A stretch of 64,000 bases of DNA from Candidatus Levyibacteriota bacterium (lineage in GTDB: Bacteria > Patescibacteriota > Microgenomatia > Levybacterales > UBA12049), in contig CP066685.1 in NCBI GenBank assembly GCA_016432345.1, positions 432,236-496,235 of the forward strand, in the 5' to 3' direction. Each line of letters opens with the position of its first letter. The first letter of the stretch is position 1. Position numbers and translations under genes: made by a program. Positions 2,636-18,219 of this stretch are shown here, piece after piece. The notes beneath the pieces were generated by a model that ran no database searches, was not told the DNA's origin, and was given only the letters and a program-made list of their open reading frames with translations.

Positions 2636-3460
2636 ATGAAGAACTCTTTGCTTATTAATGCAATCTTGCAAAAAGAAATTGACCCAGCATTTAGAAGACG
2701 AGCGGAGGTAGTGATTAAAAATCTGTCTCTTAAAAATGGCGATAAAATTCTAGAAGTAGGCTGCGGAAGAGGATTTTACGGACATATTATCGGGACATTT
2801 TTCCCTAAAATTTCTTACATCGGGATTGATATAAATGAAAAGCATTTGAGAATAGCAAAAGTTTTTGCCCAAGCGCCAAACGTAAATTTTCGAAAAGTCG
2901 ATGCAACAAAACTTCCTTTTGATGATAAAGTTTTTGATAAAATTATTTGCACAGAGGTCCTTGAACATATCAAAAATGACAGATTAGCTATTTCCGAATT
3001 ATACAGGGTAATAAAACCTCATGGGGCAGCAATAATTACTGTCCCCAATAAAAATTACCCATTTTTTTGGGATCCTATCAATTGGGTTCTTGAGCGGTTT
3101 TTTCATACTCATATTCCTTCTCATGTTTTATGGTTTGCTGGTATTTGGGCTTATCATGTAAGATTGTACGGCGAAGACGAACTGTTAGAAAAAATTAAGA
3201 AGCAGGGATTTAAGGTAAGCAGTATTACAAGAACAACACATTTTTGTTTCCCTTTTGCACATTTTCTTCTCGGAATTGGGAAGATTATTGTGGAAAAGGG
3301 TTTTTTTACTTCTTTTGATAGATTCGCCCCCTCAGGCAAGAATTCATTTCTACTTAAATTAGTTTTGAAAATGTTCTATTTGTTTGATAAATATAACGAC
3401 ATGAAAACTCTAAAAAAAGGCAGTTCTTTCGTCAATATAATTATAAAGGTGAAGGCGTGA
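2636..3460 (+). CDS. Class I SAM-dependent methyltransferase
   Basis: ILEVGCGRGFYG (SAM motif I) and DKIICTEVLEHI. I chose the ATG at 2636 because the longer ORF from 2573 would overlap the transaldolase gene by 35 nt. Confidence 0.75.
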   Translation: MKNSLLINAILQKEIDPAFRRRAEVVIKNLSLKNGDKILEVGCGRGFYGHIIGTFFPKISYIGIDINEKHLRIAKVFAQAPNVNFRKVDATKLPFDDKVFDKIICTEVLEHIKNDRLAISELYRVIKPHGAAIITVPNKNYPFFWDPINWVLERFFHTHIPSHVLWFAGIWAYHVRLYGEDELLEKIKKQGFKVSSITRTTHFCFPFAHFLLGIGKIIVEKGFFTSFDRFAPSGKNSFLLKLVLKMFYLFDKYNDMKTLKKGSSFVNIIIKVKA

Positions 3461-3464: not shown

Positions 3465-4466
3465 TTAATAGTTTTGGACTGCGAATTCAGTAATCCTTTT
3501 CAGGCCTTGTGTAAGACTTACCCTCGGGTCCCAATGAAGTAGTTTTTTGGCTTTTTTGATAGAAGCCAATGTATATCTATGAACTTCATCTTCTACGAAG
3601 TTTTTTTGCAGAGGAAATTTTCCTTTAAAAAGGTTTGGGTATGTATCCCATAAAAGTGAAGGTTTTCTAAAAATTGGTTTTATTTTCTCTTTACCTAAAT
3701 ATGCTGCAACTTGCTTGTAAATTTCGTTTATTGAAGAGGCTTTTCCCGATCCAACGTTGAACGTTTGATTTTTTGCATTTGTATTTGTGATTGCTATTTC
3801 ACATACTTGCAAGACGTCATCAATATAAATCATATCTCTTGATTGATTTCCGTCTGAATGTAAAACTGGAACACGATCTCTAAGGAGACACGTAAGTATA
3901 TAGCTGATAAAAGGAGGATTGGGGCGGCGAAAATCCATATGAGGCCCATACACATTAAAGAATCGGAATATTACTATATCCATTTTGTAAAGTTCTTGAT
4001 AGGCGTGACAAATTTCCTCTGCAGATTTCTTTGATAGACTATATGCTAATGTTGGGTTTACCTGCATATCTTCTGTTAAGGGGAAAGATTTTTCATTTTC
4101 ATATACCGCAGAGCTCGAAGAAAAAATTACCCGTCTTATACTGCATTTGCGGGCGATCTCTAAAACATTGGCTGTTCCTATGACATTTACGCTAAAGGTT
4201 TCTAACGGATCGCTTTGACAAGCTGGTAAAGAATTCATTCCGGCAAAATGAAAAATGATATCTACATTTTTGATAACTTTTTCAATTTTTCTATCCCTCA
4301 CATCCATTTGTATAAATTGAAGGTTCAAATTATTTCTATTTGTCAGATTTTCCAGATAACCAAAACGCAAATTATCCAGTACAACAACCTGATGCTTTTT
4401 CCCAAGTAAATAAGCAGCCAAGTTTGAACCGATAAATCCTGCTCCGCCGGTGATTAGAATTTTCAT
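3465..4466 (-). CDS. NAD-dependent nucleotide-sugar epimerase/dehydratase (extended SDR)
   Basis: MKILITGGAGFIGSNL Rossmann motif, a SSSAVYE catalytic Ser region and YSLSK (YxxxK). Confidence 0.8.
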   Translation of the reverse strand: MKILITGGAGFIGSNLAAYLLGKKHQVVVLDNLRFGYLENLTNRNNLNLQFIQMDVRDRKIEKVIKNVDIIFHFAGMNSLPACQSDPLETFSVNVIGTANVLEIARKCSIRRVIFSSSSAVYENEKSFPLTEDMQVNPTLAYSLSKKSAEEICHAYQELYKMDIVIFRFFNVYGPHMDFRRPNPPFISYILTCLLRDRVPVLHSDGNQSRDMIYIDDVLQVCEIAITNTNAKNQTFNVGSGKASSINEIYKQVAAYLGKEKIKPIFRKPSLLWDTYPNLFKGKFPLQKNFVEDEVHRYTLASIKKAKKLLHWDPRVSLTQGLKRITEFAVQNY

Positions 4467-4470
4467 CTAA

Positions 4471-5190
4471 TTATCCTTTCTTGTCCTTTTTGTTACGTGA
4501 GAATGAAATAATAGATCGGCCAAGAGTTGGAAAAATTTTAGCTGGCGCGTCAAATAGGAAAAAACCAGGTAAGGTAATGGTATCGGAAAATGCTGTAATT
4601 TGTTCAAATTTATGGAGTTGGAGAAGCTCTTTTAGCGTTTCAAAAGTAAAATATCGGATATGACCTGCAGCATTTTTGGGCAAACTGAATGATTGCTCCA
4701 TAAATGCGCCTTTTCCAAATAAGTAATAAAGTCTTCTTCCAAAAGAAACAAAATTAGGTGTAGTAATGATTAGTGTCCCATCTGGTTTTAAAATTCGTTT
4801 AATTTCACGCAGAAAGAAATCCGTATCATACAAATGCTCAATTATTTCTCCTGCGAATACATAGTCAAAGAAATTTGATTCAAAATCTATGCCTTTTTCT
4901 ATATCGCAAATTTTTGCGATTATTCCCTTTTGACGAGCAAGAACAATAGTTTTTTTTGCGATATCTATGCCATAGGCCTCACAGTTTCTTAGACAATCTT
5001 TTAAAAGGGAAGCAAGGTATCCATCATAGCAACCAATATCCAAAAGTTTCACAGAATCTTTCGCATTCGAATTACGTTTAACAAGGAAAGATAGGATTGC
5101 TTTTAATCGAGGATCGTTCTCGTAATTTATAGTCCGATTGGCAACGGGATCATAACGTTTTTTAAGAAATTCTTGACGATTTTTATACAT
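4471..5190 (-). CDS. Class I SAM-dependent methyltransferase
   Basis: LLDIGCYDGYLASLL motif I and DYVFAGEIIEHL. I chose the ATG at 5190 (MYKNRQEF) because a TTGCGC-N17-TATACT promoter lies 8 nt upstream. The ORF-track start at 5241 is a TTG inside that promoter region. Confidence 0.7.
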   Translation of the reverse strand: MYKNRQEFLKKRYDPVANRTINYENDPRLKAILSFLVKRNSNAKDSVKLLDIGCYDGYLASLLKDCLRNCEAYGIDIAKKTIVLARQKGIIAKICDIEKGIDFESNFFDYVFAGEIIEHLYDTDFFLREIKRILKPDGTLIITTPNFVSFGRRLYYLFGKGAFMEQSFSLPKNAAGHIRYFTFETLKELLQLHKFEQITAFSDTITLPGFFLFDAPAKIFPTLGRSIISFSRNKKDKKG

Positions 5191-5198
5191 AGTTAGAA

Positions 5199-5227
5199 AG
5201 TATACCATGTATTTTCTAAGCGCGCAA
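5199..5227 (-). promoter_or_regulatory. Sigma70-type promoter TTGCGC-N17-TATACT, ATG (5190) 8 nt downstream
   Basis: Read on the minus strand: -35 at 5227-5222, -10 at 5204-5199, exact 17-nt spacer. It is back-to-back with the plus-strand promoter at 5231. Confidence 0.5.
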
Positions 5228-5230
5228 AAA

Positions 5231-5259
5231 TTGTATGCCAAAGCAGAGAAGTGTATAAT
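5231..5259 (+). promoter_or_regulatory. Sigma70-type promoter TTGTAT-N17-TATAAT for the GT2 gene at 5280
   Basis: -35 at 5231-5236, -10 at 5254-5259 preceded by GTG, 17-nt spacer. The ATG is 20 nt downstream with no obvious SD. Confidence 0.5.
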
Positions 5260-5279
5260 AGCATCTTACATAAACTATT

Positions 5280-6353
5280 ATGTTGAAGAGACCATTTTTT
5301 TCCATCGTCATTCCTACATATAATAGGGCTGTGGATTTACAATTTGCGCTTTACTGTATTTTTCAACAAACATTTGCTGATTTTGAAGTAGTTATTTCTG
5401 ATAATTGTTCCAGTGATAATACAAAATCTGTTGTACAAAATATAAAAGATAAACGAGTGCGTTATTTTAGATTAAAAAAAACAGTAGGAAACGCGATCAA
5501 TTTTAAAAATGGGATAAAACGGGCAAAAGGAAAATATGTTTTTCTCCATAGCGATGATGATTTTATCCTATACCAGAGGTCTCTTGGAGAAATTTACAGC
5601 CAGATTATTAGACTGCGTCCGGGATATATTCGTATTAATTATGTCAGTTTATCTTTGGATAAGAAGCGGATTTTTTATTATCGGCTTGTTAAGAGGTTTA
5701 CCAAGAAGAATGAGTATTTTTCCCCATCTGTTGAAAATGAAAAAATATTAACATTTATTCTTAATTCTGATCCTTATTTTATTTCAGGGATAATTTTCAA
5801 AAATGAATTTAGTAAAGGCATTAAAATAATTGATTCAGATCCATTGCCTTGTATAGAGATTCTGTTTGATGTAATCAGAAATTTTGGTGGATATTATATT
5901 GCAAAGCCTTATATAGCAGCATCTTGGTCTAGGAGGGAGATTAAAAAAAACGAACCACATCACTTTTATGTTTTAATTGATGGAAAATTACGATTTGAAC
6001 AGTATCTTGAAGTAGTTAAACGAAATGTCAATAAAGAAACGTATGCTAAATTTTTGCATCGTGAATTAATGAATCATTATGTTTTGCTCTTTCCGGCAAT
6101 GAAAGTTCTGGCGGGAAATAAAAAAACATTACAAATTTCCTTGAGAATTTGCCAACTTGATCCAGCTGTGAAAAAGAATGTTGTTTTTTGGATAAGTTTA
6201 GGGATAGCATTTCTATTGCCTGGTTGTATTCTTAAAGTTCTCCGAGACACATTTTTAAGTCTATTTGCAAGATATTCCAAAGTAGAAGGCGGCGATGAAA
6301 TTTATGCCACAATAAGGAATTTACAATTGGGATGCGAAGGACGAAAACATTAG
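5280..6353 (+). CDS. GT2-family glycosyltransferase
   Basis: FSIVIPTYNRAVDL, VVISDNCSSDNT and the FLHSDDD (DxD) GT-A signature. Confidence 0.75.
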   Translation: MLKRPFFSIVIPTYNRAVDLQFALYCIFQQTFADFEVVISDNCSSDNTKSVVQNIKDKRVRYFRLKKTVGNAINFKNGIKRAKGKYVFLHSDDDFILYQRSLGEIYSQIIRLRPGYIRINYVSLSLDKKRIFYYRLVKRFTKKNEYFSPSVENEKILTFILNSDPYFISGIIFKNEFSKGIKIIDSDPLPCIEILFDVIRNFGGYYIAKPYIAASWSRREIKKNEPHHFYVLIDGKLRFEQYLEVVKRNVNKETYAKFLHRELMNHYVLLFPAMKVLAGNKKTLQISLRICQLDPAVKKNVVFWISLGIAFLLPGCILKVLRDTFLSLFARYSKVEGGDEIYATIRNLQLGCEGRKH

Positions 6354-7355
6354 CCTCTTTTTAATCCATAAAATTTCCGACCATCCATAACCAAAAAGCA
6401 TTGCCAGACAAATAACAGGATGCAAAAACCATGCTAAGTCTCGTATCTTTATGAAGCCTCGCACCGCTTCAAAAATTGGAATGATAATGGTTATCGAAAA
6501 GAAGATGAATTTCATAACATTAAAGATATCTTTTTTTGACCTCCAACTAAAAACGTAATATATCCTTTTGTAACGTTGATGGTCATAATATACTTTCTTG
6601 AGCCATAACTTTCCTTTTACCATACCTAAGATATTGGGATTAGCTATATGAATTATGCCATTTTTCACAACCCCAAATGTATCGTACCCAAGGTCGAGTA
6701 GCTTTGCAAATGCATCAGGATGCGCATACACCTCTGGATCAATATTTACTTTTTCCATAGCGCTTCTCAAAAACAAACTTCCGTTATCTCCCAAGACAGG
6801 TAAATTTTCTCTTTTGAAACGAACAACAAAATAATTTTTCGTTTCTCCTAATATCTCCCCCTTATCATAATGCTTATCAACTATTGAAATCTTCTCATTT
6901 TTCTTTAAGAAATATACTGTTGGTTCAGGAGTTCCAAATAATGCAGAGTATCTTGTTGTTGCCGGTAGACTTTTATTGTAACCATAATAAGCACTATACG
7001 TGCAAAATATTCGTTTGTCCGCCAGAAAGGGTTGAATCATTTCCATCAACCAATTACGAGAGCTAAGAATATTATCTGCTTCAAGTATGAGGATAAGGTC
7101 GTTTTTCGCCTTTTTTATTCCTATTGCCATACGCTCTTGAGCTTCTTCCAACAGATCTTTTCGTATAAAAACTTTACATCCATATTTTTTTGCTAGTTCC
7201 ATAGATCCATTTGTTGAACCTCCATCCATAACGATATGCTCAATTAATTTTTTGGGATAGTGCTGATTTTCAATGGAAGATAGCCCCTTACGAAAAAAAA
7301 TTAAATCGCTATTAAATAGACATGTGACGATTGAAATTGTTGGTAAACTCTTCAT
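6321..7355 (-). CDS. GT2-family glycosyltransferase with C-terminal membrane helices
   Basis: ISIVTCLFNS, HIVMDGGSTNGS and LILEADN. The hydrophobic C-terminus reads FIFFSITIIIPIF and LHPVICLAMLFGYGW. It is the last gene of the minus-strand operon. Confidence 0.7.
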   Translation of the reverse strand: MKSLPTISIVTCLFNSDLIFFRKGLSSIENQHYPKKLIEHIVMDGGSTNGSMELAKKYGCKVFIRKDLLEEAQERMAIGIKKAKNDLILILEADNILSSRNWLMEMIQPFLADKRIFCTYSAYYGYNKSLPATTRYSALFGTPEPTVYFLKKNEKISIVDKHYDKGEILGETKNYFVVRFKRENLPVLGDNGSLFLRSAMEKVNIDPEVYAHPDAFAKLLDLGYDTFGVVKNGIIHIANPNILGMVKGKLWLKKVYYDHQRYKRIYYVFSWRSKKDIFNVMKFIFFSITIIIPIFEAVRGFIKIRDLAWFLHPVICLAMLFGYGWSEILWIKKRLMFSSFASQL

Positions 7356-8656
7356 AATTTTTGAAAAAATTCATCAAAAGATGAAGTCACATATTTAAGC
7401 ATTGTGTCAGAAATACTAGGGTACACTCCAACCCAAAAGCCATTATCCATTATTTTATCGGAATTAGTAAGACTTCCAACGATTTTATGTTTTATTGTCT
7501 TATACGCAGGATGACGAAGAAGATTTCCGGCGAATAAACTCCGGGTCGCTATTTTTTTGGATTCCAGAAAATTTACCAGGTCCAATCTAGTAAAGGCGGA
7601 ACCATCTTTTATAACCATCATAAATCCAAACCAGCATGGATCTGCCTCGTCTTCCCATTTTGGCAAAATCAGAAACTTTTCGTATTTTTTAAGATGTTTA
7701 TAAAGTTTTTGAAAGTTAGATTTACGCATCGCTATAAAATTATGTAATTTATCAAGCTGAGCTAGTCCAATCGCAGCCTGCATGTCGGTAAGTTTTAGAT
7801 TATATCCAATTTGTGAGTAAATATATTTATGATCATACCCAAAGGGAAGATCTCCCATTTTCCAGCCAAATCTTTTTCCACATGTATTATCTTTTCCCGT
7901 ATCGCACCAGCAGTCTCTTCCCCAGTCACGAAACTGACGAATATATCGGTGCAGCAATGGATTATTTGTTATTATGGCGCCTCCCTCTCCCATGGTAATT
8001 TGGTGGGCCGGATAAAAGCTAAACGTTGCGATATCCCCGAAAGTACCCACGTATTTGCCGTTATATGTTGAACCGAGCGCATCACAGCAATCTTCGATTA
8101 CCCAAAGATTGTGTTTTCTTGCAAGAGAAATAATTTCTGATAAAGCAAAAGGATTTCCCAGCGTATGGGCAATCATAATTGCTTTTGTTTTTTTTGTTAT
8201 TGCTTTTTTAATTAGTGATGGAATCACATTTCTTGTTGCCAGATCCACATCAAGAAAAACCGGAACGCAGCCTTTTAAAATAATAGGATTGACAGTTGTA
8301 GGAAAACCTGTTGCTGTTGTAATTATTTCGTCTCCAGGCTTTAATGCTTTTTTACCAAACACTTCTGAAGTTAACGCTGAAAAAGCAACAAGATTTGCCG
8401 ATGATCCTGAATTGACCAGAGAGACGTATCGAATGTTTAAATGTGCCGCAAATTTTCTTTCAAATTTTTGGGCAAATTTCCCTTCAGTCCACCAACCATC
8501 AAGTACAGCCTGCGTACCCATAAGCAACTCGTTATCATCAAAGACTTTTCCGGATACAGGAATGGGCGACTCTCCCGGTACAAACTTTTTTTTGGGAAAG
8601 TTTTCTTTGTAATATGCTTGTATGAACTTTACTAAATCAGTTTTCATAAGTAGCAT
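7352..8656 (-). CDS. rfbH: CDP-4-keto-6-deoxy-D-glucose-3-dehydrase (E1; PMP and [2Fe-2S] dependent)
   Basis: 434 aa, DegT/EryC1 fold (VNSGSSANLVAFSAL). His replaces the PLP-Lys in FSFYPAHQITMGEGG. The cysteine spacing is exactly C-X57-C-X1-C-X7-C (EDCC...RDCWCDTGKDNTCGKRF). It is encoded in the same operon as rfbF and rfbG. Confidence 0.9.
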   Translation of the reverse strand: MLLMKTDLVKFIQAYYKENFPKKKFVPGESPIPVSGKVFDDNELLMGTQAVLDGWWTEGKFAQKFERKFAAHLNIRYVSLVNSGSSANLVAFSALTSEVFGKKALKPGDEIITTATGFPTTVNPIILKGCVPVFLDVDLATRNVIPSLIKKAITKKTKAIMIAHTLGNPFALSEIISLARKHNLWVIEDCCDALGSTYNGKYVGTFGDIATFSFYPAHQITMGEGGAIITNNPLLHRYIRQFRDWGRDCWCDTGKDNTCGKRFGWKMGDLPFGYDHKYIYSQIGYNLKLTDMQAAIGLAQLDKLHNFIAMRKSNFQKLYKHLKKYEKFLILPKWEDEADPCWFGFMMVIKDGSAFTRLDLVNFLESKKIATRSLFAGNLLRHPAYKTIKHKIVGSLTNSDKIMDNGFWVGVYPSISDTMLKYVTSSFDEFFQKL

Positions 8657-9557
8657 GTATTGTTTTTACAATCTGCTCCAAAGATAATTCGTTTGCTTTC
8701 CGCATATATTCTTGACTCCCTATTACTTTTGTAAATTGGTCAGGAACACCAATTCTTTTAAATCTTACGGGGCTGCCGGCCTCCGCCAATACTTCTGCGA
8801 CTGCACTTCCTAATCCACCGATTATACTATGTTCTTCGATAGTAAATATTGCCTTTGTTTTTTTTGCTGACTTAAGAATAATATCTTTATCTAAAGGCTT
8901 AATACTTGGCATACTGATAAGTCGTACTGAATAATTTTCTTTTTCAAGCTCGCTGGCTGCCTGAAATGCTCTATAAAGTAATGTGGAACAGCTTATTACT
9001 GTTATTGTAGTCCCATCTTTAATTATGATTCCTTTACCAATGGTAAAATCTATTGGTTTTTTATGTACATTCGGTTCACCAGCTTTGCCAAGTCTAAGAT
9101 ACACAGGGCCAATATGTCGAAGCATAGCTTTCGTTGCTAAATCAGTTTCAATAGGATCTCCAGGGGCAAAGATAACTAAACCGGGAAGAGTCCGTAAAAT
9201 TCCTATGTCTTCAAGACCATGATGTGTATGTCCATATGGTCCATACGAAAAACCAGCTCCTACGCCCACAATTTTCACATTGAGGTTTTGGTAGCAAATA
9301 TCGTTTCGAATTTGCTCGAAATTACGCATTGTGGTAAAAGGAGCAATCGAATATATAATGGGCATTTTGTCTTCTATTGCCATTCCGGCCGCTACTCCTG
9401 CCATATTTTGTTCTGCAACACCCATGTTAAGATACTGATCAGGGAAAGCCTCAATATATTTTTCAAAGACTGAAAATCCTAAATCTCCAGTTAAAAGAAA
9501 AATACTTTTATCTTTTTTGGCAAACTCAAATAATCTATGAACAAATGTTATTCTCAT
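8637..9557 (-). CDS. Split transketolase, C-terminal (pyrimidine-binding plus C-terminal domain) subunit
   Basis: LTGDLGFSVFEKYIEAFPDQYLNMGVAEQNMAGVAAGMA. At 306 aa it sits directly downstream of the N-terminal subunit gene with a 4-nt overlap. Confidence 0.85.
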   Translation of the reverse strand: MRITFVHRLFEFAKKDKSIFLLTGDLGFSVFEKYIEAFPDQYLNMGVAEQNMAGVAAGMAIEDKMPIIYSIAPFTTMRNFEQIRNDICYQNLNVKIVGVGAGFSYGPYGHTHHGLEDIGILRTLPGLVIFAPGDPIETDLATKAMLRHIGPVYLRLGKAGEPNVHKKPIDFTIGKGIIIKDGTTITVISCSTLLYRAFQAASELEKENYSVRLISMPSIKPLDKDIILKSAKKTKAIFTIEEHSIIGGLGSAVAEVLAEAGSPVRFKRIGVPDQFTKVIGSQEYMRKANELSLEQIVKTIHATYEN

Positions 9558-10390
9558 GAATTTTCTTCAGAAAAAATCTCTTCTATTTCTTCATCTGTTG
9601 GTGGTTTATACTGGGATGAAATTTGATTGATATGTACTTTCGGTCCTCCGAATCCTTTAATCGTGTTTGCGATTACAACAGACGGCTTACCGTTTTTAAA
9701 CGGAAGATGATTAAGTGTTTTTATTATTTCTTCAAAGCTGTGTCCGTTTATCTCTTTTACTTCCCATTGAAAACTTTTCCATTTATCAACAAATGGTTCC
9801 AAATCTAAAATATCTTTGGTAAAACCAAATCCCTGGAGTTTATTATAGTCAACAATGGTAATTAAATTGTCGAGTTTGTGATGACCAGCAAAAAGAATTG
9901 CCTCCCATGTAGATCCCTCGTCGCATTCTCCATCAGATAGAATAGTAAAAACTCGAAACTTTTTTTTATCGATTTTTCCAACATAAGCTATCCCTGCAGC
10001 CATAGATAGCCCATGCCCCAAAGCACCAGCTGATACCTCAACCCCTGGCATACAATGCCGTGTTGAGTGTCCTGGTAATAATCCACCATTCATTTCATAT
10101 CCTTCAAGAATTTTTTTATCAAAAAAACCACGCTCTGCCAGTACTGCGTACAAAACTTTTGCATCATGCGCTTTACTAAAGATTAAACGATCTCGTAAAG
10201 GATTATCTGCGTCTCTTGGGAAAACTTTCATGATTGTAAAATATAATGCCACCATTATTTCAACACAAGAAAGAGCTCCTCCAGTATGGGCACTTTTAGC
10301 GACGTAAGCCATGGTAATGATTTGTTTTCTAATCTCATTTGCATGCTTTTCGAGCTTGACTCTTTCCGATGTCAACGTTTTTTTATTCAT
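9554..10390 (-). CDS. Split transketolase, N-terminal (TPP-binding) subunit
   Basis: GHSTRHCMPGVEVSAGALGHGLSMAAGIAY and the TPP motif LSDGECDEGSTWEAILFAGHHKLDNLITIVDYN. Confidence 0.85.
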   Translation of the reverse strand: MNKKTLTSERVKLEKHANEIRKQIITMAYVAKSAHTGGALSCVEIMVALYFTIMKVFPRDADNPLRDRLIFSKAHDAKVLYAVLAERGFFDKKILEGYEMNGGLLPGHSTRHCMPGVEVSAGALGHGLSMAAGIAYVGKIDKKKFRVFTILSDGECDEGSTWEAILFAGHHKLDNLITIVDYNKLQGFGFTKDILDLEPFVDKWKSFQWEVKEINGHSFEEIIKTLNHLPFKNGKPSVVIANTIKGFGGPKVHINQISSQYKPPTDEEIEEIFSEENS

Positions 10391-11327
10391 AAAGATTGTT
10401 ATTCGTTCTGAACCAAGATATAGTTTTTAATAATCCGTCATCTAAGCTATATTTTGCTTTCCATTTTAACATTTTTTTTGATTTTCTAATGTCAGCCTGC
10501 CATTTTCCCTTCTCAATTTGTCTTTTTTGAGCTAAAACCTTACCCCATATAATTTTTGATTCGCTTTTTGAGAGATGAATGATTTTTTCCGTTGTTTCTT
10601 CTATTGTGCTTTGCTTTCCTGTCCCAATATTAAATATTTCCCCCGGAGCTACTTTCTTCTTGCATGCATTTAAATATGCGTCAACGACATCCTCTATGTA
10701 TATAAAATCTCTAACGTTTTTTTTGCTACCTACTATAATTGGTTCATTTTTTATTGCAGCCCGGACAATAGAAGAGATAAAACGTGAGTTATGTTCGTAT
10801 GGGCCGTAGGCTGAAAATAATCGAAATGTAATCATAGGTAGATTATTTACTATTGCTTCTTTCTGTACATAAAGCGTTACGGCCGTTTTAACAACTCCAT
10901 AGTCGTTGATGGGAAGAGCAGGGTCGGTCTCGCTCATTTTATCAAACTTTACTCCGTATTCCGAAGAGCTCCCCGTATTTATAAATAATTTAAAAGGATT
11001 TTTCTTTAAAGCATCGATTAGATTGACAGTCCCCTTAAAATTAACCTTTATTAGCTCATCTAGACTGTCTTCGTTTGGCAAAGATCCGTGAGTGGTCAGA
11101 TGGAAAATGTAATCTGGTTTAATTTTTGTGATTACTCTATGAAGGTTAGGACTAAGGAGATCAACTTCGTGAATCTTAATTTTTGATTTTACATCAGATA
11201 ACCGCCAATTTAGATTTTTTTTTCTTGATAGAACATGAACGTTCTTTTTATCATGGGCTAAACGTCTTGCTATGTTTGCTCCTACAAAACCAGTCGCCCC
11301 AGTAAGTAAATAAACATCTTTATTCAT
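10383..11327 (-). CDS. NAD-dependent nucleotide-sugar epimerase/reductase (extended SDR)
   Basis: VYLLTGATGFVGANIARRL, GSSSEYG and YGVVK (YxxxK). Confidence 0.75.
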   Translation of the reverse strand: MNKDVYLLTGATGFVGANIARRLAHDKKNVHVLSRKKNLNWRLSDVKSKIKIHEVDLLSPNLHRVITKIKPDYIFHLTTHGSLPNEDSLDELIKVNFKGTVNLIDALKKNPFKLFINTGSSSEYGVKFDKMSETDPALPINDYGVVKTAVTLYVQKEAIVNNLPMITFRLFSAYGPYEHNSRFISSIVRAAIKNEPIIVGSKKNVRDFIYIEDVVDAYLNACKKKVAPGEIFNIGTGKQSTIEETTEKIIHLSKSESKIIWGKVLAQKRQIEKGKWQADIRKSKKMLKWKAKYSLDDGLLKTISWFRTNNNLYE

Positions 11328-12457
11328 GTTAAAAACATTGGTTCGGGAGTAATGACTGCTATTTGGTTTTTTTTGAAATTATATTTTTTCTGGAGAGTAG
11401 AAACAATCTCATCAACATATGCCATAGCAGTAACCACTACAACATTTATATCTTCTTTTTTAAGAGCATCAGGACTAGCGACAGGAATGTGGCTTCCTGG
11501 TAAATAAGTCCCCCACTTATTGGGGTCCGAATCAACACAAAAGACAATAGCATCTTTGGGAATATTTGAAAAAGATATTGATGAAATTCCCTTTGCTCCT
11601 GCTCCCCAGAGAGCAATTTTATTATTAGCGATATTTCTAAAGAATTTTTTATACTGACTTCTATAGTCGATGAACTGCTTCTGAATATTATTTCCCAGTC
11701 CTGATTTATTTGTGTATTGGAAGTAGGCAATTAGATAGTTTTCATCCGGAGAATGCTTAACTGAAAAAACATCAAATCCATTCAGATGAAGCATATACGA
11801 TAAAGAAGTTGGTGAATAATATGCTACATGATCAGGAAAAAAATCATAGTATCTATTATCTCTTAGTGTTTTTACTAAAGATGGGACCTCAACTAATCCA
11901 TATCCACCCACTTTTAAGAATTTCTTGATATTTGTGAGTAATTTTTTAGGATCAGAGATGTGCTCAAAAACCTCTAAGGTTACAAACGCATCAGCTTTTT
12001 GATCAAGTTTAAATTTATCATCCACATAGTCTCTAATAACCTTTACGCCTTTGTCTTTTGCTAATCTAGTTGCGACATCGCTTGGTTCTATGCCAATTGA
12101 TTTAGATTTGGCTTTTAAAAGTGCGTAAACAAAATATCCGTCGCCACAACCTACATCCACGACCAGCTTATTTTTTAAATCAAAAAAGGAAATAAAGTCC
12201 TTAGCTAATCCTTTTAAGTATTTCCGAGCGTGCGGCGAATATGTCCTGCTCATTATGTAGTCATCATAATAATCATTTACCACATAATTTTTATCAGATA
12301 GTTGGATTAAGGTACATTTCTCACACTTTAAGATTTTAAGGTCATTTTTTTTATCTCTTTGAAGATTTTTCTCCGAAATTACCTGGACACGCATTGGAGC
12401 ATTTGGGACCTCTAAAAAAGTCGATAGCTTTTCAAAACCACAGGAAATACATCTCAT
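11324..12457 (-). CDS. NDP-hexose C-methyltransferase (TylCIII-like three-domain type)
   Basis: N-terminal Cys pairs C-x2-C...C-x2-C (MRCISCG...ILKCEKC). SAM motif VVDVGCGDGYF. A C-terminal Rossmann-like domain (IALWGAGAKG...VVVVTAMAY) is typical of sugar C-methyltransferases. It is a paralog of 31343-32602. Confidence 0.7.
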   Translation of the reverse strand: MRCISCGFEKLSTFLEVPNAPMRVQVISEKNLQRDKKNDLKILKCEKCTLIQLSDKNYVVNDYYDDYIMSRTYSPHARKYLKGLAKDFISFFDLKNKLVVDVGCGDGYFVYALLKAKSKSIGIEPSDVATRLAKDKGVKVIRDYVDDKFKLDQKADAFVTLEVFEHISDPKKLLTNIKKFLKVGGYGLVEVPSLVKTLRDNRYYDFFPDHVAYYSPTSLSYMLHLNGFDVFSVKHSPDENYLIAYFQYTNKSGLGNNIQKQFIDYRSQYKKFFRNIANNKIALWGAGAKGISSISFSNIPKDAIVFCVDSDPNKWGTYLPGSHIPVASPDALKKEDINVVVVTAMAYVDEIVSTLQKKYNFKKNQIAVITPEPMFLT

Positions 12458-13386
12458 AGTATTTTACTATACCAATTTAACACTCCAGGAAGTGTTTTTT
12501 CAAGACTATATTCATTCTTCCAACCTAAACTTTTAACCTTTTGGTTATCCAGGTGCTGATAAGGAATTTCATTGCGCGCTACATTTAATATTTTGTAGGG
12601 AATCTTTACTCCTAAAATAGCTTGTGCTTTTTCAATTACTTCAAGGACAGAAAGAGTATCTTGCGAAGAAAAATTATATGCCTGTCCTTCTATATCGCCT
12701 TTGTGAGTCAACAAGAATAGATAGCCATCCACAACATCTTTAACATAGACGTAATCGCGAATATATTGACCATCGCTTCTTATCGCAAAGGTGTTTTTAT
12801 TTACTATTGCTTTACAAAGTCCTGGAATAATCCTATCAAAATGCAAATCGCCTTCGCCATATACATTTCCAAATCGTGCAATAACAATAGGAAGATTATA
12901 CGTTTTATAATATGTTTGCGCGATTAAATCTGCGCTCGATTTAGAAACATCATATGGATGATCTCCAGCAAGAGGGGAATCTTCGGTATATGTTTTTTTT
13001 GTCTTTCCATAAGCCTTGTCGGAAGAAGCAAATACTATTCTTTTTACCCCCCCGATTACTCTACATGCTTCAAAAATATTAATTGAACCTAAAATATTTG
13101 TTTCGAATGTTTCCATAGGTTTATCAAAGGCAGTAGTTACGATCGTTTGCGCAGCTAAATGAGTAACATATGAGGGTTTATATATTTTAAATATGTCAAA
13201 TACTTTCTTTTTATCCCGTATATCAATTTGTACAAACTCAACTTTTTTTTGAAGCGAATGTTGCCAAAAAATTGATTTTGGAGTAATCTTTCTATCTACA
13301 ATAATAATTTTATTGGGTGTCTTAACAAGTGCATCTACAAGATTACTCCCAATAAAACCGGCTCCCCCAGTAATAATAATATTCAT
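12454..13386 (-). CDS. rfbG: CDP-glucose 4,6-dehydratase-like SDR
   Basis: MNIIITGGAGFIGSNL, ASSDKAYG and YDVSK. The start at 13386 forms an ATGA overlap with the rfbF stop. It lies next to the cytidylyltransferase gene. Confidence 0.75.
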   Translation of the reverse strand: MNIIITGGAGFIGSNLVDALVKTPNKIIIVDRKITPKSIFWQHSLQKKVEFVQIDIRDKKKVFDIFKIYKPSYVTHLAAQTIVTTAFDKPMETFETNILGSINIFEACRVIGGVKRIVFASSDKAYGKTKKTYTEDSPLAGDHPYDVSKSSADLIAQTYYKTYNLPIVIARFGNVYGEGDLHFDRIIPGLCKAIVNKNTFAIRSDGQYIRDYVYVKDVVDGYLFLLTHKGDIEGQAYNFSSQDTLSVLEVIEKAQAILGVKIPYKILNVARNEIPYQHLDNQKVKSLGWKNEYSLEKTLPGVLNWYSKIL

Positions 13387-14078
13387 TCTTTCCATACTTT
13401 CCAAGGTGCGTGTTGTTTCCAAAGTTTATTTAATTCCTCCATATCTCTATACGTATCCATTGCATGCCAAAACCCTTCATGTCTATAAAGCGACAACTGT
13501 CTATTCTTTGTTAGTCGTATCAACGTGGGATGCTCCATCTCGCCTTTTCTAAAGTAAGATAAGGCGTCCTTTCTAAAAACCATAAATCCTCCGCTTACCC
13601 ATTCGGAAAGGACTGGTTTCTCAACAAATTTTGTTACCTTATTTCCATCTCGAATTTTCACTAAGCCATAGAGGGAGCGAGGGTGCACTCCTGTTATTGT
13701 TCCTATTGTTTTTTGCCTTTTATGGAATGTAACTAATTCTGTAATGTTAACATCTGATACACCATCACCGTAAGTAAGCATAAATTCGTCCCCATCAATA
13801 TAGTCTTTTACTCGCAATACTCTTTCTCCAGGTAAAGTCTCCAAACCTGTATCAACAAATGTTATCTTAAATCCATCGTCGTTACGAAAAAACTTTCTGA
13901 TATAGTCTCCTTTATAACCCAAAGCGACAATAAAATCGGAAAAACCATAATGATCATAAATTTTCATAATATGCCAAAGAATAGGTTTTCCCCCAATAGT
14001 TATCATTGGCTTAGGAATCCACTCTGTTTTCTCTTTTAACCTATATCCTCTTCCCCCGGATAATATTATTGTTTTCAT
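13383..14078 (-). CDS. rfbF: Glucose-1-phosphate cytidylyltransferase
   Basis: MKTIILSGGRGYRLKEKTEWIPKPMITIGGKPILWHIMKIY is the characteristic RfbF N-terminus. It also has LTYGDGVSDVN, and HEGFWHAMDTYRD near the C-terminus. Confidence 0.85.
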   Translation of the reverse strand: MKTIILSGGRGYRLKEKTEWIPKPMITIGGKPILWHIMKIYDHYGFSDFIVALGYKGDYIRKFFRNDDGFKITFVDTGLETLPGERVLRVKDYIDGDEFMLTYGDGVSDVNITELVTFHKRQKTIGTITGVHPRSLYGLVKIRDGNKVTKFVEKPVLSEWVSGGFMVFRKDALSYFRKGEMEHPTLIRLTKNRQLSLYRHEGFWHAMDTYRDMEELNKLWKQHAPWKVWKE

Positions 14079-14093
14079 TTTTTGATTATACTA

Positions 14094-15203
14094 CTAATTA
14101 TCCATTTCTACTTTTTCAAGTGTACGCATGCTTTTTTTGGCTGCATGCGCCCAACTAAATTTCTGTGACCATTTTATAGCATTTTTACTTAATGTTTCTC
14201 GAAGAGTCCTGTCGTTTAATACTTCACATATTTTATTAATCAATTCTTCTTCGTCTTTTGCTAATATACCTGTTTTCCCATTCTGTATTGATTCTGTTAA
14301 TCCTGAAACATTAAAAGAAACAGCAGGTGTTCCATATAAGTTTGCTTCTATAACAGCCATACCCCAACCTTCACCAATTGAAGGATTAACAACTAGCCAT
14401 GATTTGGATAACAAGGATTTTTTTTCCGCATCGTTTACCGGCCCAAGCAGGGTAATTTTTCTACGCAGTGGACTTTTCATAACCAAATTTGCTATATTGG
14501 ATGCCTCTGTTCCCCAACCAGCAATAATCAAACGGGTTTGAGGCATTTTTTCAATTATTTTAGGAAAAATTTTGACCAGCAAGTCAACCCTTTTATACCT
14601 CTTGATTCGTCCTAAATAGAGAATTGTCGGCGCAGAAAATTTTTTTATAGAGTTTTTTATAGTATTTGATCCGTTAATACCGCAATAAACAATAGAAATA
14701 TTTTTTTTGTTAAAGCCTATACTTATCAACTGTTTTTTTGTTGTTTCCGAAATGACAATAATAGAGAGATGTTTATAGAGGAAAGGGAAAACAAATCTTT
14801 CGACAATAAATCCAAAATAACTTAAAGGAAAGGGGAGTTCATAAAAAAATTGATCGCCGTGTAAATGGTATACATAGCTTACTTTAGGAATTCTACAAAA
14901 TAGGGGTGTAAAAAATGGAATCCCATTTACAACGTCCACTACAACATCGGCTTTTCCTCTAAAACGAGAAATATAATACCATATCGCCCAAAGATAAAGA
15001 TTATACCTACCGCCTTTTCTATAAATTTTTATGCCGTCTATTATTTCAAAAGAGGGAAGATTTTCTTCTATATCCTGTCCACAAAAAAGACTTACTTCAT
15101 GACCCATTTTTACCCAACGGGAGGCCTGTTCAAAAATATAAATCTCACCGCCTCCGGCCCAACTATGTTTGAGATCTCGCCAGTTAAAAATAAGTATTCT
15201 CAT
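14094..15203 (-). CDS. GT4-family glycosyltransferase (first gene of the minus-strand operon)
   Basis: The E-x7-E motif GEGWGMAVIEANLYGTPAV and the N-terminus MRILIFNW. I chose the ATG at 15203. The ORF-track start at 15218 is a TTG inside the predicted -10 element. Confidence 0.8.
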   Translation of the reverse strand: MRILIFNWRDLKHSWAGGGEIYIFEQASRWVKMGHEVSLFCGQDIEENLPSFEIIDGIKIYRKGGRYNLYLWAIWYYISRFRGKADVVVDVVNGIPFFTPLFCRIPKVSYVYHLHGDQFFYELPFPLSYFGFIVERFVFPFLYKHLSIIVISETTKKQLISIGFNKKNISIVYCGINGSNTIKNSIKKFSAPTILYLGRIKRYKRVDLLVKIFPKIIEKMPQTRLIIAGWGTEASNIANLVMKSPLRRKITLLGPVNDAEKKSLLSKSWLVVNPSIGEGWGMAVIEANLYGTPAVSFNVSGLTESIQNGKTGILAKDEEELINKICEVLNDRTLRETLSKNAIKWSQKFSWAHAAKKSMRTLEKVEMDN

Positions 15204-15217
15204 TTTAAGTTCGGTCA

Positions 15218-15246
15218 AGTATACTATAGCTACAATTTCTTATCAA
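15218..15246 (-). promoter_or_regulatory. Sigma70-type promoter TTGATA-N17-TATACT for the nine-gene minus-strand operon (15203 to 6321)
   Basis: Minus strand: -35 at 15246-15241, -10 at 15223-15218, 17-nt spacer. The ATG at 15203 is 14 nt downstream. Confidence 0.55.
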
Positions 15247-15267: not shown

Positions 15268-17577
15268 ATGCGGCGTATTAATTTTAGTTTTCTTAGGGAA
15301 CACAAGTTAGCCTTAGTAATCTGTATCATTCTTTTTATATTACCTTTTTTTTGGTTAAAACCAGGAGAAATGGATTTGGGGGGGGATAGCAGTCGATTAT
15401 TTTTCTACGATCCTCTAAATTATCTTAAAAACTCAAATCTTTATTATGTTGCAAGAGATGGAATAGGATCGGTTGAGCCTGAATATAGTTATGATTATGC
15501 CCTTATTCCATATTTAGCAATACTTATATTATTAAAATCCATATTTTCTTCTACTATTCTAATCAATTTATTTAATGGAGTAAAACTTGCCGGTGGATTC
15601 ATAGTAATATATTTTATAGTACGGGAATTTCTTTTAGAGACATACGGTAAGACTAAAAAAGATACACTTAATAATGTATCGGTATTAAGCGGAGTTTTTT
15701 ATATAGTTTCTCAAGGATCAATTAATTTGGTTGTCAGTTGGGAGACAGCTCTCACATCACATAATCAGTTTTTTATATATCCTCTTATTTTTTTCTTGCT
15801 TTTTAAATCTTTAATTACGCATAAATATAGCTATCTTTGGATTGCATTACTGATTAGTTTTATTTTTTCTCCAAATTTTGGAGGACTGGAGTCTATTCCA
15901 CCCTTTTTTGCATTCTGGCCAATAGTAGCAGTATTTTTGTTTCTGTATATAAAGATTTTTGGTAAAAAACCAATTTCATGGAAAATAATAATTATGGCAG
16001 CAGTACTTTTCTTAGGCGTTCATACTTTTCATCTTCTTGCTCAAGCAGTTAGCTTATTTGATAGCGGGAGTTTTACTAATGTTAAAGTTTTTGACAAATA
16101 TTATATGATAGACCTTGGGCTTAATATTTTTGGCGCTGTGCTTTCAAGCGGAATGGCAACCCTAAATTTTCTGCTTCCTTCTCCAAATATATTTCTTAGA
16201 TGGATATCTTTTCTGTCTGCATTAATAATTCTTGTCGGATTTATTTTAAACAAAAAAAAAGAATTTTTATTCATTTCTATTTTCTTTTTTATTACTTTTT
16301 TTTTCTCAACAGCCAATATAACAAATGTTGGAGTAGAATTTTATAAGAGTTTATTCTATCTACCTGGTTTTTCCATGTTTAGAATTTTTTCCAAATGGCT
16401 GTATGTTTTTGTTTTCTTTTACGCTTTATTATTTGGGTTTGCTGCGTATAGTATTAGCGAAAAGTTAAAAGTAAATTATTCAAAGCTTTTTTTTATTTTT
16501 GTTTTTACTTTTTTAATTATATCCGGTATTCCGCTATTTTCTGGAGCTCCAATAAATAAATCTTTAATAGGCGGTACCAATATAAAAAAAACCTTCTTAA
16601 TGGATTCTAAATATGAGCAAGTGCTTGAACATATTCGTACTTTACCGGATGACGGAAAGATATTAGTACTACCATTAGTTGGTTTTAATTATCAATTTTT
16701 CTTTGGTGTTGATTCGGGAGCATATTTAGGGCTTAGTTCGATAAGTCACTTAACAGATAAATATAGTTTTACAGGGGAACGACATTTTGGCGTTGCTGGG
16801 TTTTACGGGCCAAATTTATATAGTTATTTGGTTCAAAAATACGCCAAAGAAAAAAACTATAAAAGATTAAATCAGTTATTTACTCTTATGAATATTCGAT
16901 ATATTTTATATAATGCTGATTCAAGACAATACGAACGAGGATTTTCAGATACTCAATTTTTCTTGCCGGAATCCTTTCCCAAAACGAAAGCTGGATACGA
17001 TGAGTTTATAAGGCACTTTTCTATACAACAAATATATAAAAACGGCAATTATATTTTGTACGAATTTAGTAAATCCAGTTATAACTCTACTATTTTTATC
17101 CCAAAAGGAGTATATGAGAGCAATGATCTCATCTATGATGAGAAGAATTTACATTCAATTTTTATTGATAAAAATACTTGTAATATAAAAGAGTTTAAGG
17201 AAATTTGTAAAGGAGGTTATAACGCTTCAGACAACGATGTAAGTTTTAAAATGATAAATCCCGTCCTTTACGAAGTAACAATTATCAAAAAAAAACCACA
17301 AGACACAATACTTTTAGTTATGCAGCACGCCTTTAATAGAGCCTGGAAATTGATAATCGACAAAAAAAATGTATCGAAAGAGTCACATGTGTTAGTAAAT
17401 GGATATGCAAACGGATGGTTATTGGGTAAGGGTGATATTCCACAGGCAAAAAAATTTACAGTATTTATAAAACTCGATTCCCAAAAATATTTTTGGTATG
17501 GGTGGGTAGTAACAGCTGTTTCTTTAGCTGTTGTAATTGGATTATTAGTAGTTTCCATAGTTAAACAACGGCATTGA
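15268..17577 (+). CDS. Giant-family GT-C-like polytopic membrane protein, short form (paralog 1)
   Basis: 769 aa. The first ~430 aa hold about a dozen hydrophobic segments, followed by a large soluble region and a final TM helix (WVVTAVSLAVVIGLLVV). The loop motif PFFWLKPGEMDLGGDSSRLFFYDP and the blocks HNQFFIYPLIFFLL, IFSPNF, PGFSMFR, LPDDGKILVLP, NIRYILYNAD, INPVLYEV, FNRAWKL and VNGYANGW are shared with 34533, 37320 and 41633. Confidence 0.7.
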   Translation: MRRINFSFLREHKLALVICIILFILPFFWLKPGEMDLGGDSSRLFFYDPLNYLKNSNLYYVARDGIGSVEPEYSYDYALIPYLAILILLKSIFSSTILINLFNGVKLAGGFIVIYFIVREFLLETYGKTKKDTLNNVSVLSGVFYIVSQGSINLVVSWETALTSHNQFFIYPLIFFLLFKSLITHKYSYLWIALLISFIFSPNFGGLESIPPFFAFWPIVAVFLFLYIKIFGKKPISWKIIIMAAVLFLGVHTFHLLAQAVSLFDSGSFTNVKVFDKYYMIDLGLNIFGAVLSSGMATLNFLLPSPNIFLRWISFLSALIILVGFILNKKKEFLFISIFFFITFFFSTANITNVGVEFYKSLFYLPGFSMFRIFSKWLYVFVFFYALLFGFAAYSISEKLKVNYSKLFFIFVFTFLIISGIPLFSGAPINKSLIGGTNIKKTFLMDSKYEQVLEHIRTLPDDGKILVLPLVGFNYQFFFGVDSGAYLGLSSISHLTDKYSFTGERHFGVAGFYGPNLYSYLVQKYAKEKNYKRLNQLFTLMNIRYILYNADSRQYERGFSDTQFFLPESFPKTKAGYDEFIRHFSIQQIYKNGNYILYEFSKSSYNSTIFIPKGVYESNDLIYDEKNLHSIFIDKNTCNIKEFKEICKGGYNASDNDVSFKMINPVLYEVTIIKKKPQDTILLVMQHAFNRAWKLIIDKKNVSKESHVLVNGYANGWLLGKGDIPQAKKFTVFIKLDSQKYFWYGWVVTAVSLAVVIGLLVVSIVKQRH

Positions 17578-17616: not shown

Positions 17617-18219
17617 ATGACTAAAATTAGCACGAAGTATCGTGATAAAGCCCGAAAACGCTTATTGGAAAGTGCTGATGTTAAAAAAAAAGTTGCAGAA
17701 GAATGTTTAGAGTTAATTTTAATCGCCAGTCAAATGATAGTTGATACATTTGCATCCGGCGGAAAGGTAATGATTTGCGGCAATGGTGGCAGCGCAGCTG
17801 ACTCTCAGCATATGGCAGGAGAATTAGTTTGCATGTTAAATAAAGTATTTGAAAGACCAGGTCTTCCCGCGATTGCTTTAAGTACAGATACATCTATTTT
17901 GACAGCGCATGCCAACGATCTTGGTTTTGAAAAAATCTTTAAACGACAAGTCAACGCATTAGGTAAGGCTGGAGATGTATTAATTGGAATCACAACAAGT
18001 GGCAGTTCTCCAAATATTCTTGCCGCAATCAATTCCGCAAGAACTGCTAAAATACGTACAATCATGCTAACTGGGAACAGTAAAAAAACAAAAAAATTAG
18101 CGGATGTTGTATTGTCGGTTCCGAGTAGCAATACCCAATATATTCAAGAATCACATATAGCTATTGAACACATAATATGTGAGATTGTAGAAGATCATCT
18201 TTTTGGTGCAAAAAGGTAA
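17617..18219 (+). CDS. gmhA: Phosphoheptose isomerase (sedoheptulose-7-phosphate isomerase)
   Basis: ICGNGGSAADSQHMAGEL, ITTSGSSPNIL and QESHIAIEH. The 200-aa length is typical of GmhA. Confidence 0.85.
   Translation: MTKISTKYRDKARKRLLESADVKKKVAEECLELILIASQMIVDTFASGGKVMICGNGGSAADSQHMAGELVCMLNKVFERPGLPAIALSTDTSILTAHANDLGFEKIFKRQVNALGKAGDVLIGITTSGSSPNILAAINSARTAKIRTIMLTGNSKKTKKLADVVLSVPSSNTQYIQESHIAIEHIICEIVEDHLFGAKR

Follow-up and report, generated by a model that had tools for sequence, protein, structure and literature searches.

The stretch of DNA analysed here, called the window below, comprises 64,000 nucleotides from a Candidatus Levyibacteriota bacterium (GenBank assembly GCA_016432345.1, contig CP066685.1, positions 432,236 to 496,235) and contains an operon in which genes for CDP-sugar synthesis flank a split pair of transketolase-like genes, named TKN and TKC in the following. 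We propose, with a probability that we put at roughly 0.5, that the product of this operon is a branched 3,6-dideoxyhexose in nucleotide-activated form, destined for the cell envelope of a bacterium of the Candidate Phyla Radiation (CPR), and that the branch would arise through the transfer of a C2 unit onto C-4. One part of this proposal can be stated more firmly: TKN and TKC very probably constitute a specialised enzyme of the sugar pathway and not a housekeeping transketolase. As far as sequence analysis goes, we are probably dealing with thiamine diphosphate (ThDP)-dependent sugar branching by a previously undefined transketolase subfamily, present in envelope glycan loci of CPR bacteria and of other phyla.

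The operon lies on the minus strand at 6321-15218 and consists of nine tightly packed genes, most of which overlap at their junctions. They encode, in this order, a GT4 glycosyltransferase, an RfbF-like cytidylyltransferase, an RfbG-like 4,6-dehydratase, a sugar C-methyltransferase, a short-chain dehydrogenase/reductase (SDR), TKN, TKC, the 3-dehydrase RfbH (also called E1) and a GT2 glycosyltransferase. The same nine genes, with their order, strand and families, had been listed in an earlier note on this DNA, and the open reading frames (ORFs) together with Pfam and NCBIfam profiles bear out the whole list. From GT4 to GT2 the junctions measure +15, -40, -4, -4, -8, -4, -20 and -4 nt, where the second value becomes -4 if the RfbG-like gene starts at an internal ATG, which is its probable start; spacing as tight as this indicates a single operon. 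An independent Logan contig (L001; compared loci are numbered in this way throughout) has a gene order identical to that of the window operon.

The active site of the transketolase-like subunits carries most of the argument. Residues are numbered as in E. coli transketolase, after alignment with E. coli TktA and with the split transketolase of Carboxydothermus hydrogenoformans, which also supplied the best PDB matches (6YAK for TKN, 203 bits; 6YAJ for TKC, 230 bits). TKN matched only Transketolase_N and TKC only Transket_pyr and Transketolase_C; the single-chain TPP_enzyme_N/M/C architecture of YerE type was matched by neither. All residues that bind ThDP and Mg or take part in catalysis are retained (H26, H66, H100, D155, N185, E411 and H473), and TKC also keeps R358 (its own R2) and S385. 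Other positions are replaced, namely R91, Q118, I189, D190, H261 (H261Q) and G262 in TKN, and in TKC F434I, H461G, V466Y, D469Y, Q474H and R520K. Six of these replacements (H261Q, F434I, H461G, V466Y, D469Y and R520K) are identical in four CPR relatives, while R91, Q118, I189, D190 and Q474 differ throughout the clade described below, in all members of which G262 and V466 have become Tyr. H261, H461, D469 and R520 are invariant in E. coli and in 46 of 46 canonical split transketolases, and among the latter the residues of the sugar-phosphate pocket, R91 and D190 included, are invariant or nearly so.

Some of these positions are known from enzyme engineering. In E. coli transketolase S385, D469 and R520 are positions mutated to retarget acceptor specificity to non-natural acceptors, the D469T exchange presents non-polar acceptors with a hydrophobic surface, and the anionic group of the substrate is contacted by R520 and H461 (PMC10787763); the natural substitutions in the acceptor pocket thus coincide with positions engineered in E. 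coli. The residue equivalent to H100 is Phe in the pyruvate-using 1-deoxy-D-xylulose 5-phosphate synthase (PMC7661550). The pattern as a whole fits an enzyme that would still load a hydroxylated C2 unit and would no longer bind an alpha-hydroxy aldose phosphate as acceptor. Judged by the features of its acceptor pocket, which differ from those of the canonical enzymes, TKN/TKC is not functionally a transketolase (EC 2.2.1.1).

Relatives of TKC were collected in a scan of one genome per species, from which 80 loci were chosen by similarity to the query. We classed as variant the sequences with I434 and G461 and no Asp at 469, and as canonical those with F/Y434-H461-D469-H473-R520; this gave a clean split into 24 variant and 46 canonical sequences. 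In a neighbour-joining tree the 24 variant sequences form one bipartition (177 of 200 bootstraps), with a mean identity of 0.46 inside the variant clade against 0.37 between variant and canonical split transketolases. The canonical group, outside the clade, includes Saccharibacteria, Berkelbacteria, Giovannonibacteria, Andersenbacteria, Daviesbacteria and other Patescibacteria. Among the 120 best matches of a search seeded with the canonical Daviesbacteria TK_C, many close canonical relatives were found in Microgenomates, from which it follows that CPR bacteria possess a separate, ordinary split transketolase; no canonical TK_C named Levyibacteria was among these best 120 matches. The variant form is not confined to the loci scanned: the combination of G461 and Y466 occurs in 127 of the best 150 cluster representatives (50%-identity clusters from a library of 1.8 billion proteins) and the canonical signature in two of them. 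The cluster members are almost entirely metagenomic and labelled just 'transketolase'. The G461/Y466 subfamily is large and widespread.

Genomic context separates the two groups as well. A DegT-family neighbour was found in 14 of 23 variant loci and in 1 of 46 canonical ones (Fisher p=7e-8), an RfbF-like neighbour in 9 of 23 against 0 of 46, and any of the NDP-sugar genes of the window in 17 of 23 against 2 of 46, numbers to be read with the caution that the compared loci are not phylogenetically independent and that resemblance to the query had already guided the choice of the 80. In the CPR relatives the transketolase pair stands in glycan loci and adjoins an RfbH orthologue or another DegT-family gene. 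A His in place of the Lys marks the neighbouring pyridoxal phosphate (PLP) enzyme as one of the 3-dehydratase type in the window as well as in L004, L006, L008, L011, L014, L030 and L074; the iron-sulfur motif of E1 is present in this enzyme in the window, L004, L008, L014 and L030 and absent in L006, L011 and L074. Genes similar to rfbH (47-57% identity) occur in L013, L015 and L019 too. A locus of Margulisiibacteriota (L014) repeats the gene set of the window in the order RfbF-RfbG-SDR-C-methyltransferase-TKN-TKC-RfbH.

The most informative locus comes from a Nevskia metagenome-assembled genome of the Gammaproteobacteria (L030), where positions 3821-10897 hold an E3-like reductase gene, RfbF, RfbG and RfbH, followed by an SDR, a variant TKN/TKC pair and rhamnosyltransferase-like glycosyltransferases. 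Its RfbF, RfbG and RfbH score 449, 500 and 750 bits, all three above the NCBIfam cut-offs. By gene content and order this is a Yersinia-type ddh set with transketolase and SDR genes where Yersinia has yerE and yerF, and it is probably the most tractable system for biochemistry. A near-identical segment is found in L031, which is labelled Kiritimatiellae; the E3-like genes of the two loci are 99.7% identical and the tblastn matches are alike.

Another label also calls for comment. Contig CAYJRY010000001.1 (L011), titled 'uncultured Gammaproteobacteria', is syntenic with the window, with 69-84% protein identity across most of the shared genes (GT4, RfbF, RfbG, TKN, TKC, GT2 and the 769-aa protein described below), and is probably mis-binned or mislabelled. 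Its genes run RfbF-RfbG-DegT-N-formyltransferase-TKN-TKC, so that the transketolase stands beside a formamido-sugar pathway.

Active site, tree and context together bear on the simplest alternative, according to which TKN/TKC is a housekeeping transketolase of the pentose-phosphate pathway, placed in a glycan island so as to supply sedoheptulose-7-phosphate to heptose pathways, or there by accident, the genome being a compact one. The window does hold two heptose gene sets of the GmhA/HddA type, with a transaldolase/fructose-6-phosphate aldolase (TAL/FSA) within one of them; the subunits are 70-84% identical to those of other Patescibacteria, and R358 and S385 of the phosphate site are retained. 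Against this, four residues invariant in the canonical enzymes are replaced, and the clade of the window protein stands apart from the canonical CPR transketolases; NDP-sugar clusters that contain members of it are found in Nevskia, Pseudomonadales, Ktedonobacterales and others. Moreover the gene pair is part of the CDP-hexose operon and of neither heptose operon, and in none of the canonical loci compared does a transaldolase or an Rfb gene stand next to the transketolase. Clustering with housekeeping pentose-phosphate enzymes had been named by the earlier note as an outcome that would speak against a sugar-branching role, and the separate clade with its NDP-sugar context is the opposite of it. 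Signature, tree and context speak against a housekeeping transketolase, and we regard this explanation as quite improbable.

The nature of the sugar nucleotide has to be judged from the first genes of the pathway. The RfbF-like protein matches TIGR02623 with 241 bits (cut-off 300); the match falls into two parts, between which some 23 positions of the profile (approximately 68-90) have no counterpart, and this indicates a deletion of about 23 aa relative to canonical glucose-1-phosphate cytidylyltransferases. This short form is kept in the CPR relatives L006 (62% identity) and L011 (84%), its length being 231-235 aa when the window is included; the RfbF of L004 is full-length (259 aa). The RfbG-like protein reaches 183 bits with the CDP-glucose 4,6-dehydratase model TIGR02622 (cut-off 278) and 179 bits with the dTDP model TIGR01181; it has the motifs YDVSK and SSDKAYG, the latter with an Asp-Lys pair as in CDP-glucose dehydratases. 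The case is clearer for RfbH, which scores 679 bits with NF011936 (cut-off 423) and 545 bits against the E1 of Yersinia pseudotuberculosis (PDB 3BCX). Its His218 replaces the Lys (YPAHQITM), and the iron-sulfur motif C-X57-C-X-C-X7-C is intact with all four Cys. By these features RfbH qualifies as a true E1 orthologue.

E1 depends on a reductase for its electrons. The E3-like protein of the Nevskia locus gave no tblastn match in the 64-kb window at E<=10. No ORF of the window combines the 2Fe-2S, RxYS and GxGxxP motifs, no ferredoxin-type Cys motif is found in its ORFs of at least 50 aa, and Pfam scans of nearly all its ORFs of at least 150 aa gave no Fer2/FAD_binding_6 (Fer2/FNR) protein. The earlier statement that no E3 ORF of the AscD/RfbI type lies in the window is thereby upheld by tblastn, motif and Pfam searches alike. 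Nor is an E3 or ferredoxin gene present in the CPR, Omnitrophota and Margulisiibacteriota loci.

This pattern of absence could be taken to mean that the transketolase-like enzyme itself replaces AscD/RfbI, by oxidising dihydroxyethyl-ThDP and passing the electrons to the [2Fe-2S] cluster of E1. The enamine intermediate of transketolase can reduce ferricyanide, and TKC and RfbH overlap by 20 nt. However, the Nevskia locus combines a full E3-like gene with the variant transketolase, other clade members stand beside His-type dehydratases without the Fe-S motif or beside plain aminotransferases, neither of which needs a reductant, and no redox cofactor site is obvious in the transketolase-like subunits. 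Replacement of E3 was rejected as the principal explanation on the first two of these grounds, and we consider it extremely improbable.

A further possibility is that TKN/TKC is indeed a specialised ThDP enzyme with another task. It might make an unusual ketose or keto-acid precursor (for example the donor of a YerE-like enzyme), provide glycolyl for N- or O-acylation of an amino sugar, or branch another keto sugar or another carbon. Split transketolases of the QncN/QncL type load glycolyl onto a carrier; no lipoyl, acyl carrier protein (ACP) or E2-like gene was found by Pfam scans in the operon or the window. In some loci clade members adjoin Lys-type aminotransferases, TylF-like methyltransferases or an N-formyltransferase, R358, S385 and Lys/Arg520 could still bind a phosphorylated partner, and the presence of a YerE-like enzyme beside the transketolase in L008, described below, also favours another task. 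On the other side, an enzyme of 3-dehydratase type, which yields a 4-keto sugar, is the neighbour found most often and nearest, and the overlap of the TKC and RfbH genes suggests coupled expression. We consider another task of this kind unlikely on balance.

These observations also have to be set against the branched 3,6-dideoxyhexose itself, and besides the sampling of loci mentioned above several points weigh against it. First, the RfbF and RfbG scores fall below the equivalog cut-offs, so that CDP specificity rests mainly on the E1 orthologue. Second, the missing E3 makes the 3-deoxy intermediate dependent on a reductase encoded elsewhere. Third, two heptose pathways and a TAL/FSA are present in the window, and a role in precursor supply stays conceivable. 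Fourth, the clade members beside aminotransferases, methyltransferases or the formyltransferase have no 3-dehydratase, which means that a 3,6-dideoxy sugar is not the acceptor in every case. Finally, a CPR locus (L008) encodes at 1353-3194 a 613-aa ThDP enzyme matching PDB 8RPH with 453 bits, far above the acetolactate synthases (262 bits) and hence YerE/JanthE-like, which shares the locus, along with an FGGY kinase, with a variant transketolase and RfbH. Two different candidate branching enzymes would then stand in one locus, and the transketolase may do a job other than that of YerE. The earlier note had placed the split transketolase in the role of YerE; the synteny of the Nevskia locus speaks for this assignment, and the YerE-like enzyme of L008 indicates that the replacement is not always a simple one. 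Its broader suggestion, that the split transketolase is a pathway enzyme branching the 4-keto-3,6-dideoxy intermediate, is supported by clade, pocket and synteny.

Returning to the branched 3,6-dideoxyhexose, the pathway can be written out as follows, where the steps of RfbF, RfbG and E1 are assigned at the level of family membership and those from TKN/TKC onwards we infer. The RfbF-like enzyme would convert glucose-1-phosphate and CTP to CDP-glucose, the RfbG-like enzyme would turn this into CDP-4-keto-6-deoxyglucose, and E1 would form CDP-4-keto-3,6-dideoxy-D-glucose with electrons from a reductase encoded outside the window. TKN and TKC are expected to assemble into an alpha2beta2 ThDP enzyme. 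With its donor and cofactor residues intact, this enzyme would take up a C2 unit, dihydroxyethyl (glycolaldehyde), from a ketol, which could be hydroxypyruvate or a ketose phosphate. Since the residues by which a transketolase normally holds the phosphate and the 2-hydroxyl of its acceptor are replaced, it would pass the C2 unit to the C-4 ketone of the CDP-sugar and not to an aldose phosphate. The predicted product is a 4-C-glycolyl tertiary alcohol, whose branch carbonyl the adjacent SDR might reduce in the manner of YerF, giving a 4-C-(1,2-dihydroxyethyl) sugar. The C-methyltransferase may methylate a carbon beside the 4-keto group, C-3 or C-5, and the GT4 and GT2 enzymes would finally transfer the sugar to the glycan.

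The C-methyltransferase scores 72 bits with Methyltransf_23 and 58 bits with Methyltransf_14 (cut-off 23.5; only profile positions 54-150 are covered), and it falls below the cut-off of Methyltransf_13 (26 bits against 31.3); its PDB matches are MtmC (4RV9, 79 bits) and TcaB9 (76 bits), and a homologue with 39% identity occupies the equivalent position in L014. It may share with the TylCIII/TcaB9/MtmC class the three-part build of an N-terminal Cys4 region, a domain binding S-adenosylmethionine and a C-terminal Methyltransf_14 domain, and differs in length (377 against about 415 aa). It is much more divergent than a second, full-length TylCIII-type copy elsewhere in the window, which is followed by an SDR and another methyltransferase; this gene group suggests yet another C-methylated sugar in the island. 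The operon SDR (Epimerase, 164 bits; motifs SSSEYG and YGVVK) has no match among the NCBIfam equivalogs and is a candidate for reducing either the branch carbonyl or C-4. In L004 (46%), L014 (40%) and L017 (41%) a homologue is the gene immediately upstream of TKN, and an SDR occupies this place in L016 and L030 as well. The GT4 protein (Glycos_transf_1 120 bits, Glyco_transf_4 61 bits) has a homologue with 69% identity at the equivalent position in L011, and homologues of the GT2 protein (44-80% identity) adjoin the transketolase genes in L006, L008, L011 and L012.

Table 1. Features of the window (positions count from its first nucleotide)
Feature	Position	Strand	Remarks
First operon of the window	2-3460	+	GHMP kinase, SIS isomerase, HAD phosphatase, transaldolase/FSA, methyltransferase
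Transaldolase/fructose-6-phosphate aldolase	1942-2607	+	221 aa; TIGR00875 151 bits, below cut-off 246
GT2 glycosyltransferase, last gene of the operon	6321-7355	-	344 aa; Glycos_transf_2 45 bits
RfbH / E1, CDP-4-keto-6-deoxyglucose 3-dehydrase (pyridoxamine phosphate (PMP), [2Fe-2S])	7352-8656	-	NF011936
TKC, transketolase-like C-terminal subunit (pyrimidine (Pyr) and C domains), variant clade	8637-9557	-	Transket_pyr and Transketolase_C
TKN, transketolase-like N-terminal subunit (pyrophosphate (PP) domain), variant clade	9554-10390	-	Transketolase_N 123 bits
Extended SDR	10383-11327	-	314 aa; Pfam Epimerase
Sugar C-methyltransferase, TylCIII/TcaB9/MtmC class	11324-12457	-	377 aa; divergent and short
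RfbG-like NDP-hexose 4,6-dehydratase (extended SDR)	12454-13422	-	TIGR02622, TIGR01181, motifs
RfbF-like glucose-1-phosphate cytidylyltransferase	13383-14078	-	231 aa; short form
GT4 glycosyltransferase	14094-15218	-	374 aa from TTG; ATG at 15203
Paralogue with hydrophobic segments	15268-17577	+	769 aa
Second NDP-sugar module	17617-26046 and 27099-28369	+ and -	GmhA, HddA-like kinase, GMD-like 4,6-dehydratase, E1 alpha/beta, DegT, three SDRs
E1 alpha, pyruvate dehydrogenase (PDH) type	20213-21151	+	heptose module
E1 beta, PDH type	21072-22199	+	heptose module
DegT, ColD-like 3-dehydratase	22199-23377	+	heptose module; His for Lys, no Fe-S motif
Second TylCIII-type C-methyltransferase	31343-32602	-	full-length, 419 aa; Methyltransf_14 191 bits, Methyltransf_13 63 bits
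Paralogue with hydrophobic segments	34533-36953	+	806 aa
Paralogue with hydrophobic segments	37281-40994	+	1237 aa
Paralogue with hydrophobic segments	41594-45367	+	1257 aa
Tetratricopeptide repeat (TPR) protein	49321-50967		TPR repeats and weak PMT_2 match
Wzy_C-like protein	56176-59358	+	1060 aa; about 25 hydrophobic segments, weak Wzy_C (O-antigen ligase/polymerase) match
PMT_2-type GT-C glycosyltransferase	59333-60850	+	

The window is essentially one large envelope-glycan island (Table 1), with many SDRs, methyltransferases and GT2/GT4 enzymes beside the heptose sets. Its second NDP-sugar module, whose GmhB and HddC are encoded on the opposite strand, looks from its gene content like a pathway for a branched 3,6-dideoxyheptose with a branching ThDP enzyme of the E1 alpha/beta class, a two-subunit enzyme that the earlier note had overlooked. 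For enzymes of this type there is experimental support for the acetyl branching of deoxy-keto sugars (KbDH, aldgamycin; PMC12247030). The window thus follows one logic twice with two ThDP superfamilies: both modules combine a 4,6-dehydratase and a 3-dehydratase with a ThDP enzyme of two subunits.

The first operon has an unusual feature, a pentose-phosphate-type aldolase inside a heptose-like operon. No homologue of this TAL/FSA was found in 89 other loci, and for this reason the transaldolase was dropped as a marker of pentose-phosphate context.

Four paralogous proteins of 769 to 1257 aa, for which no Pfam match was obtained, each show about 11 hydrophobic segments in the N-terminal part and a single one in the C-terminal part. 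Homologues (32-40% identity) stand right after the TK-RfbH genes in the CPR loci L004, L006, L008 and L012, and one with 72% identity is found in L011; the four may represent a CPR-specific family of membrane glycosyltransferases or polymerases. The Wzy_C-like, PMT_2-type and TPR/PMT_2 proteins suggest machinery for protein or lipid glycosylation in a bacterium without an outer membrane. An ultra-small CPR bacterium thus spends tens of kilobases on elaborate envelope sugar chemistry.

What is gained is that a subfamily annotated merely as 'transketolase' is now defined by sequence signature, phylogeny and synteny, and most likely acts on NDP-keto sugars. The label has consequences, as it leads to too many pentose-phosphate pathway calls in metagenome-assembled genomes, those of CPR bacteria among them. 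Material for a test is at hand in the window operon and in the Nevskia locus with its complete E1/E3 set, and mass spectrometry should reveal an addition of 60 Da to CDP-4-keto-3,6-dideoxyglucose. In vitro support for the ThDP-dependent formation of tertiary alcohols on keto sugars exists for two classes only, YerE-like lyases and E1 alpha/beta-type enzymes, and branching of transketolase type has been proposed for a handful of Streptomyces clusters only and never shown (PMC12247030). A literature search for a link of transketolase with rfbH, an O-antigen gene cluster or yersiniose gave nothing relevant beyond this paper. We tentatively suggest, though with rather less than even confidence, that the split G461/Y466 proteins are a third, unrecognised ThDP class branching NDP-keto sugars, beside the two just named; in that event many phyla, CPR included, would build envelope sugars with glycolyl or dihydroxyethyl branches, which are undescribed in bacterial glycans, and the E1 of CPR bacteria would work without a dedicated E3.

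Among known systems, the yersiniose A pathway of Y. pseudotuberculosis (DdhA-D, YerE, YerF) is similar in that a cytidylyltransferase, a 4,6-dehydratase and E1 are predicted as the early steps and that a ThDP enzyme and a reductase gene stand in one cluster; in the Nevskia locus even the order E3-RfbF-RfbG-RfbH agrees. It differs by its E3 gene, which the window lacks, and by the branching enzyme. YerE consists of a single chain, binds flavin, belongs to the decarboxylase (acetolactate-synthase-like) superfamily and takes pyruvate as donor, whereas the enzyme of the window belongs to the two-subunit transketolase superfamily and keeps H100, from which a hydroxylated C2 donor is predicted. The pairs AlmDI/DII of aldgamycin and KbDH-alpha/beta of kibdelomycin are likewise two-subunit ThDP enzymes that place a C2 unit onto a deoxy-keto sugar, but their donor is pyruvate, their branches are acetyl groups and their Pfam family is E1_dh and not Transketolase_N; the homologous E1 alpha/beta pair of the window is the one in the neighbouring heptose operon. 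The best solved relative of TKN/TKC, the C. hydrogenoformans split transketolase (6YAK/6YAJ), has the same alpha2beta2 split architecture and cofactor-binding residues, and is a working enzyme with H261, H461, D469 and R520, positions occupied in the window protein by Q, G, Y and K.

The type described for miharamycin and amipurimycin biosynthesis comes closest in the reaction proposed. There, split-gene transketolases are the proposed catalysts of hydroxyacetyl transfer to keto sugars, and 13 further candidates are listed, all reported from Streptomycetes and none characterised in vitro (PMC12247030). By description they share with the window operon the separate PP and Pyr+C subunits inside a sugar-modifying cluster, an architecture found here in the adjacent TKN and TKC genes, which overlap by 4 nt and lie between the SDR and RfbH, and they share the proposed reaction, in which a keto sugar receives a C2 ketol and a tertiary alcohol is formed. 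The difference lies in the setting: actinomycete secondary-metabolite clusters in those systems, and in the window a cell-envelope glycan locus of a CPR bacterium with genes for a CDP-dideoxyhexose.

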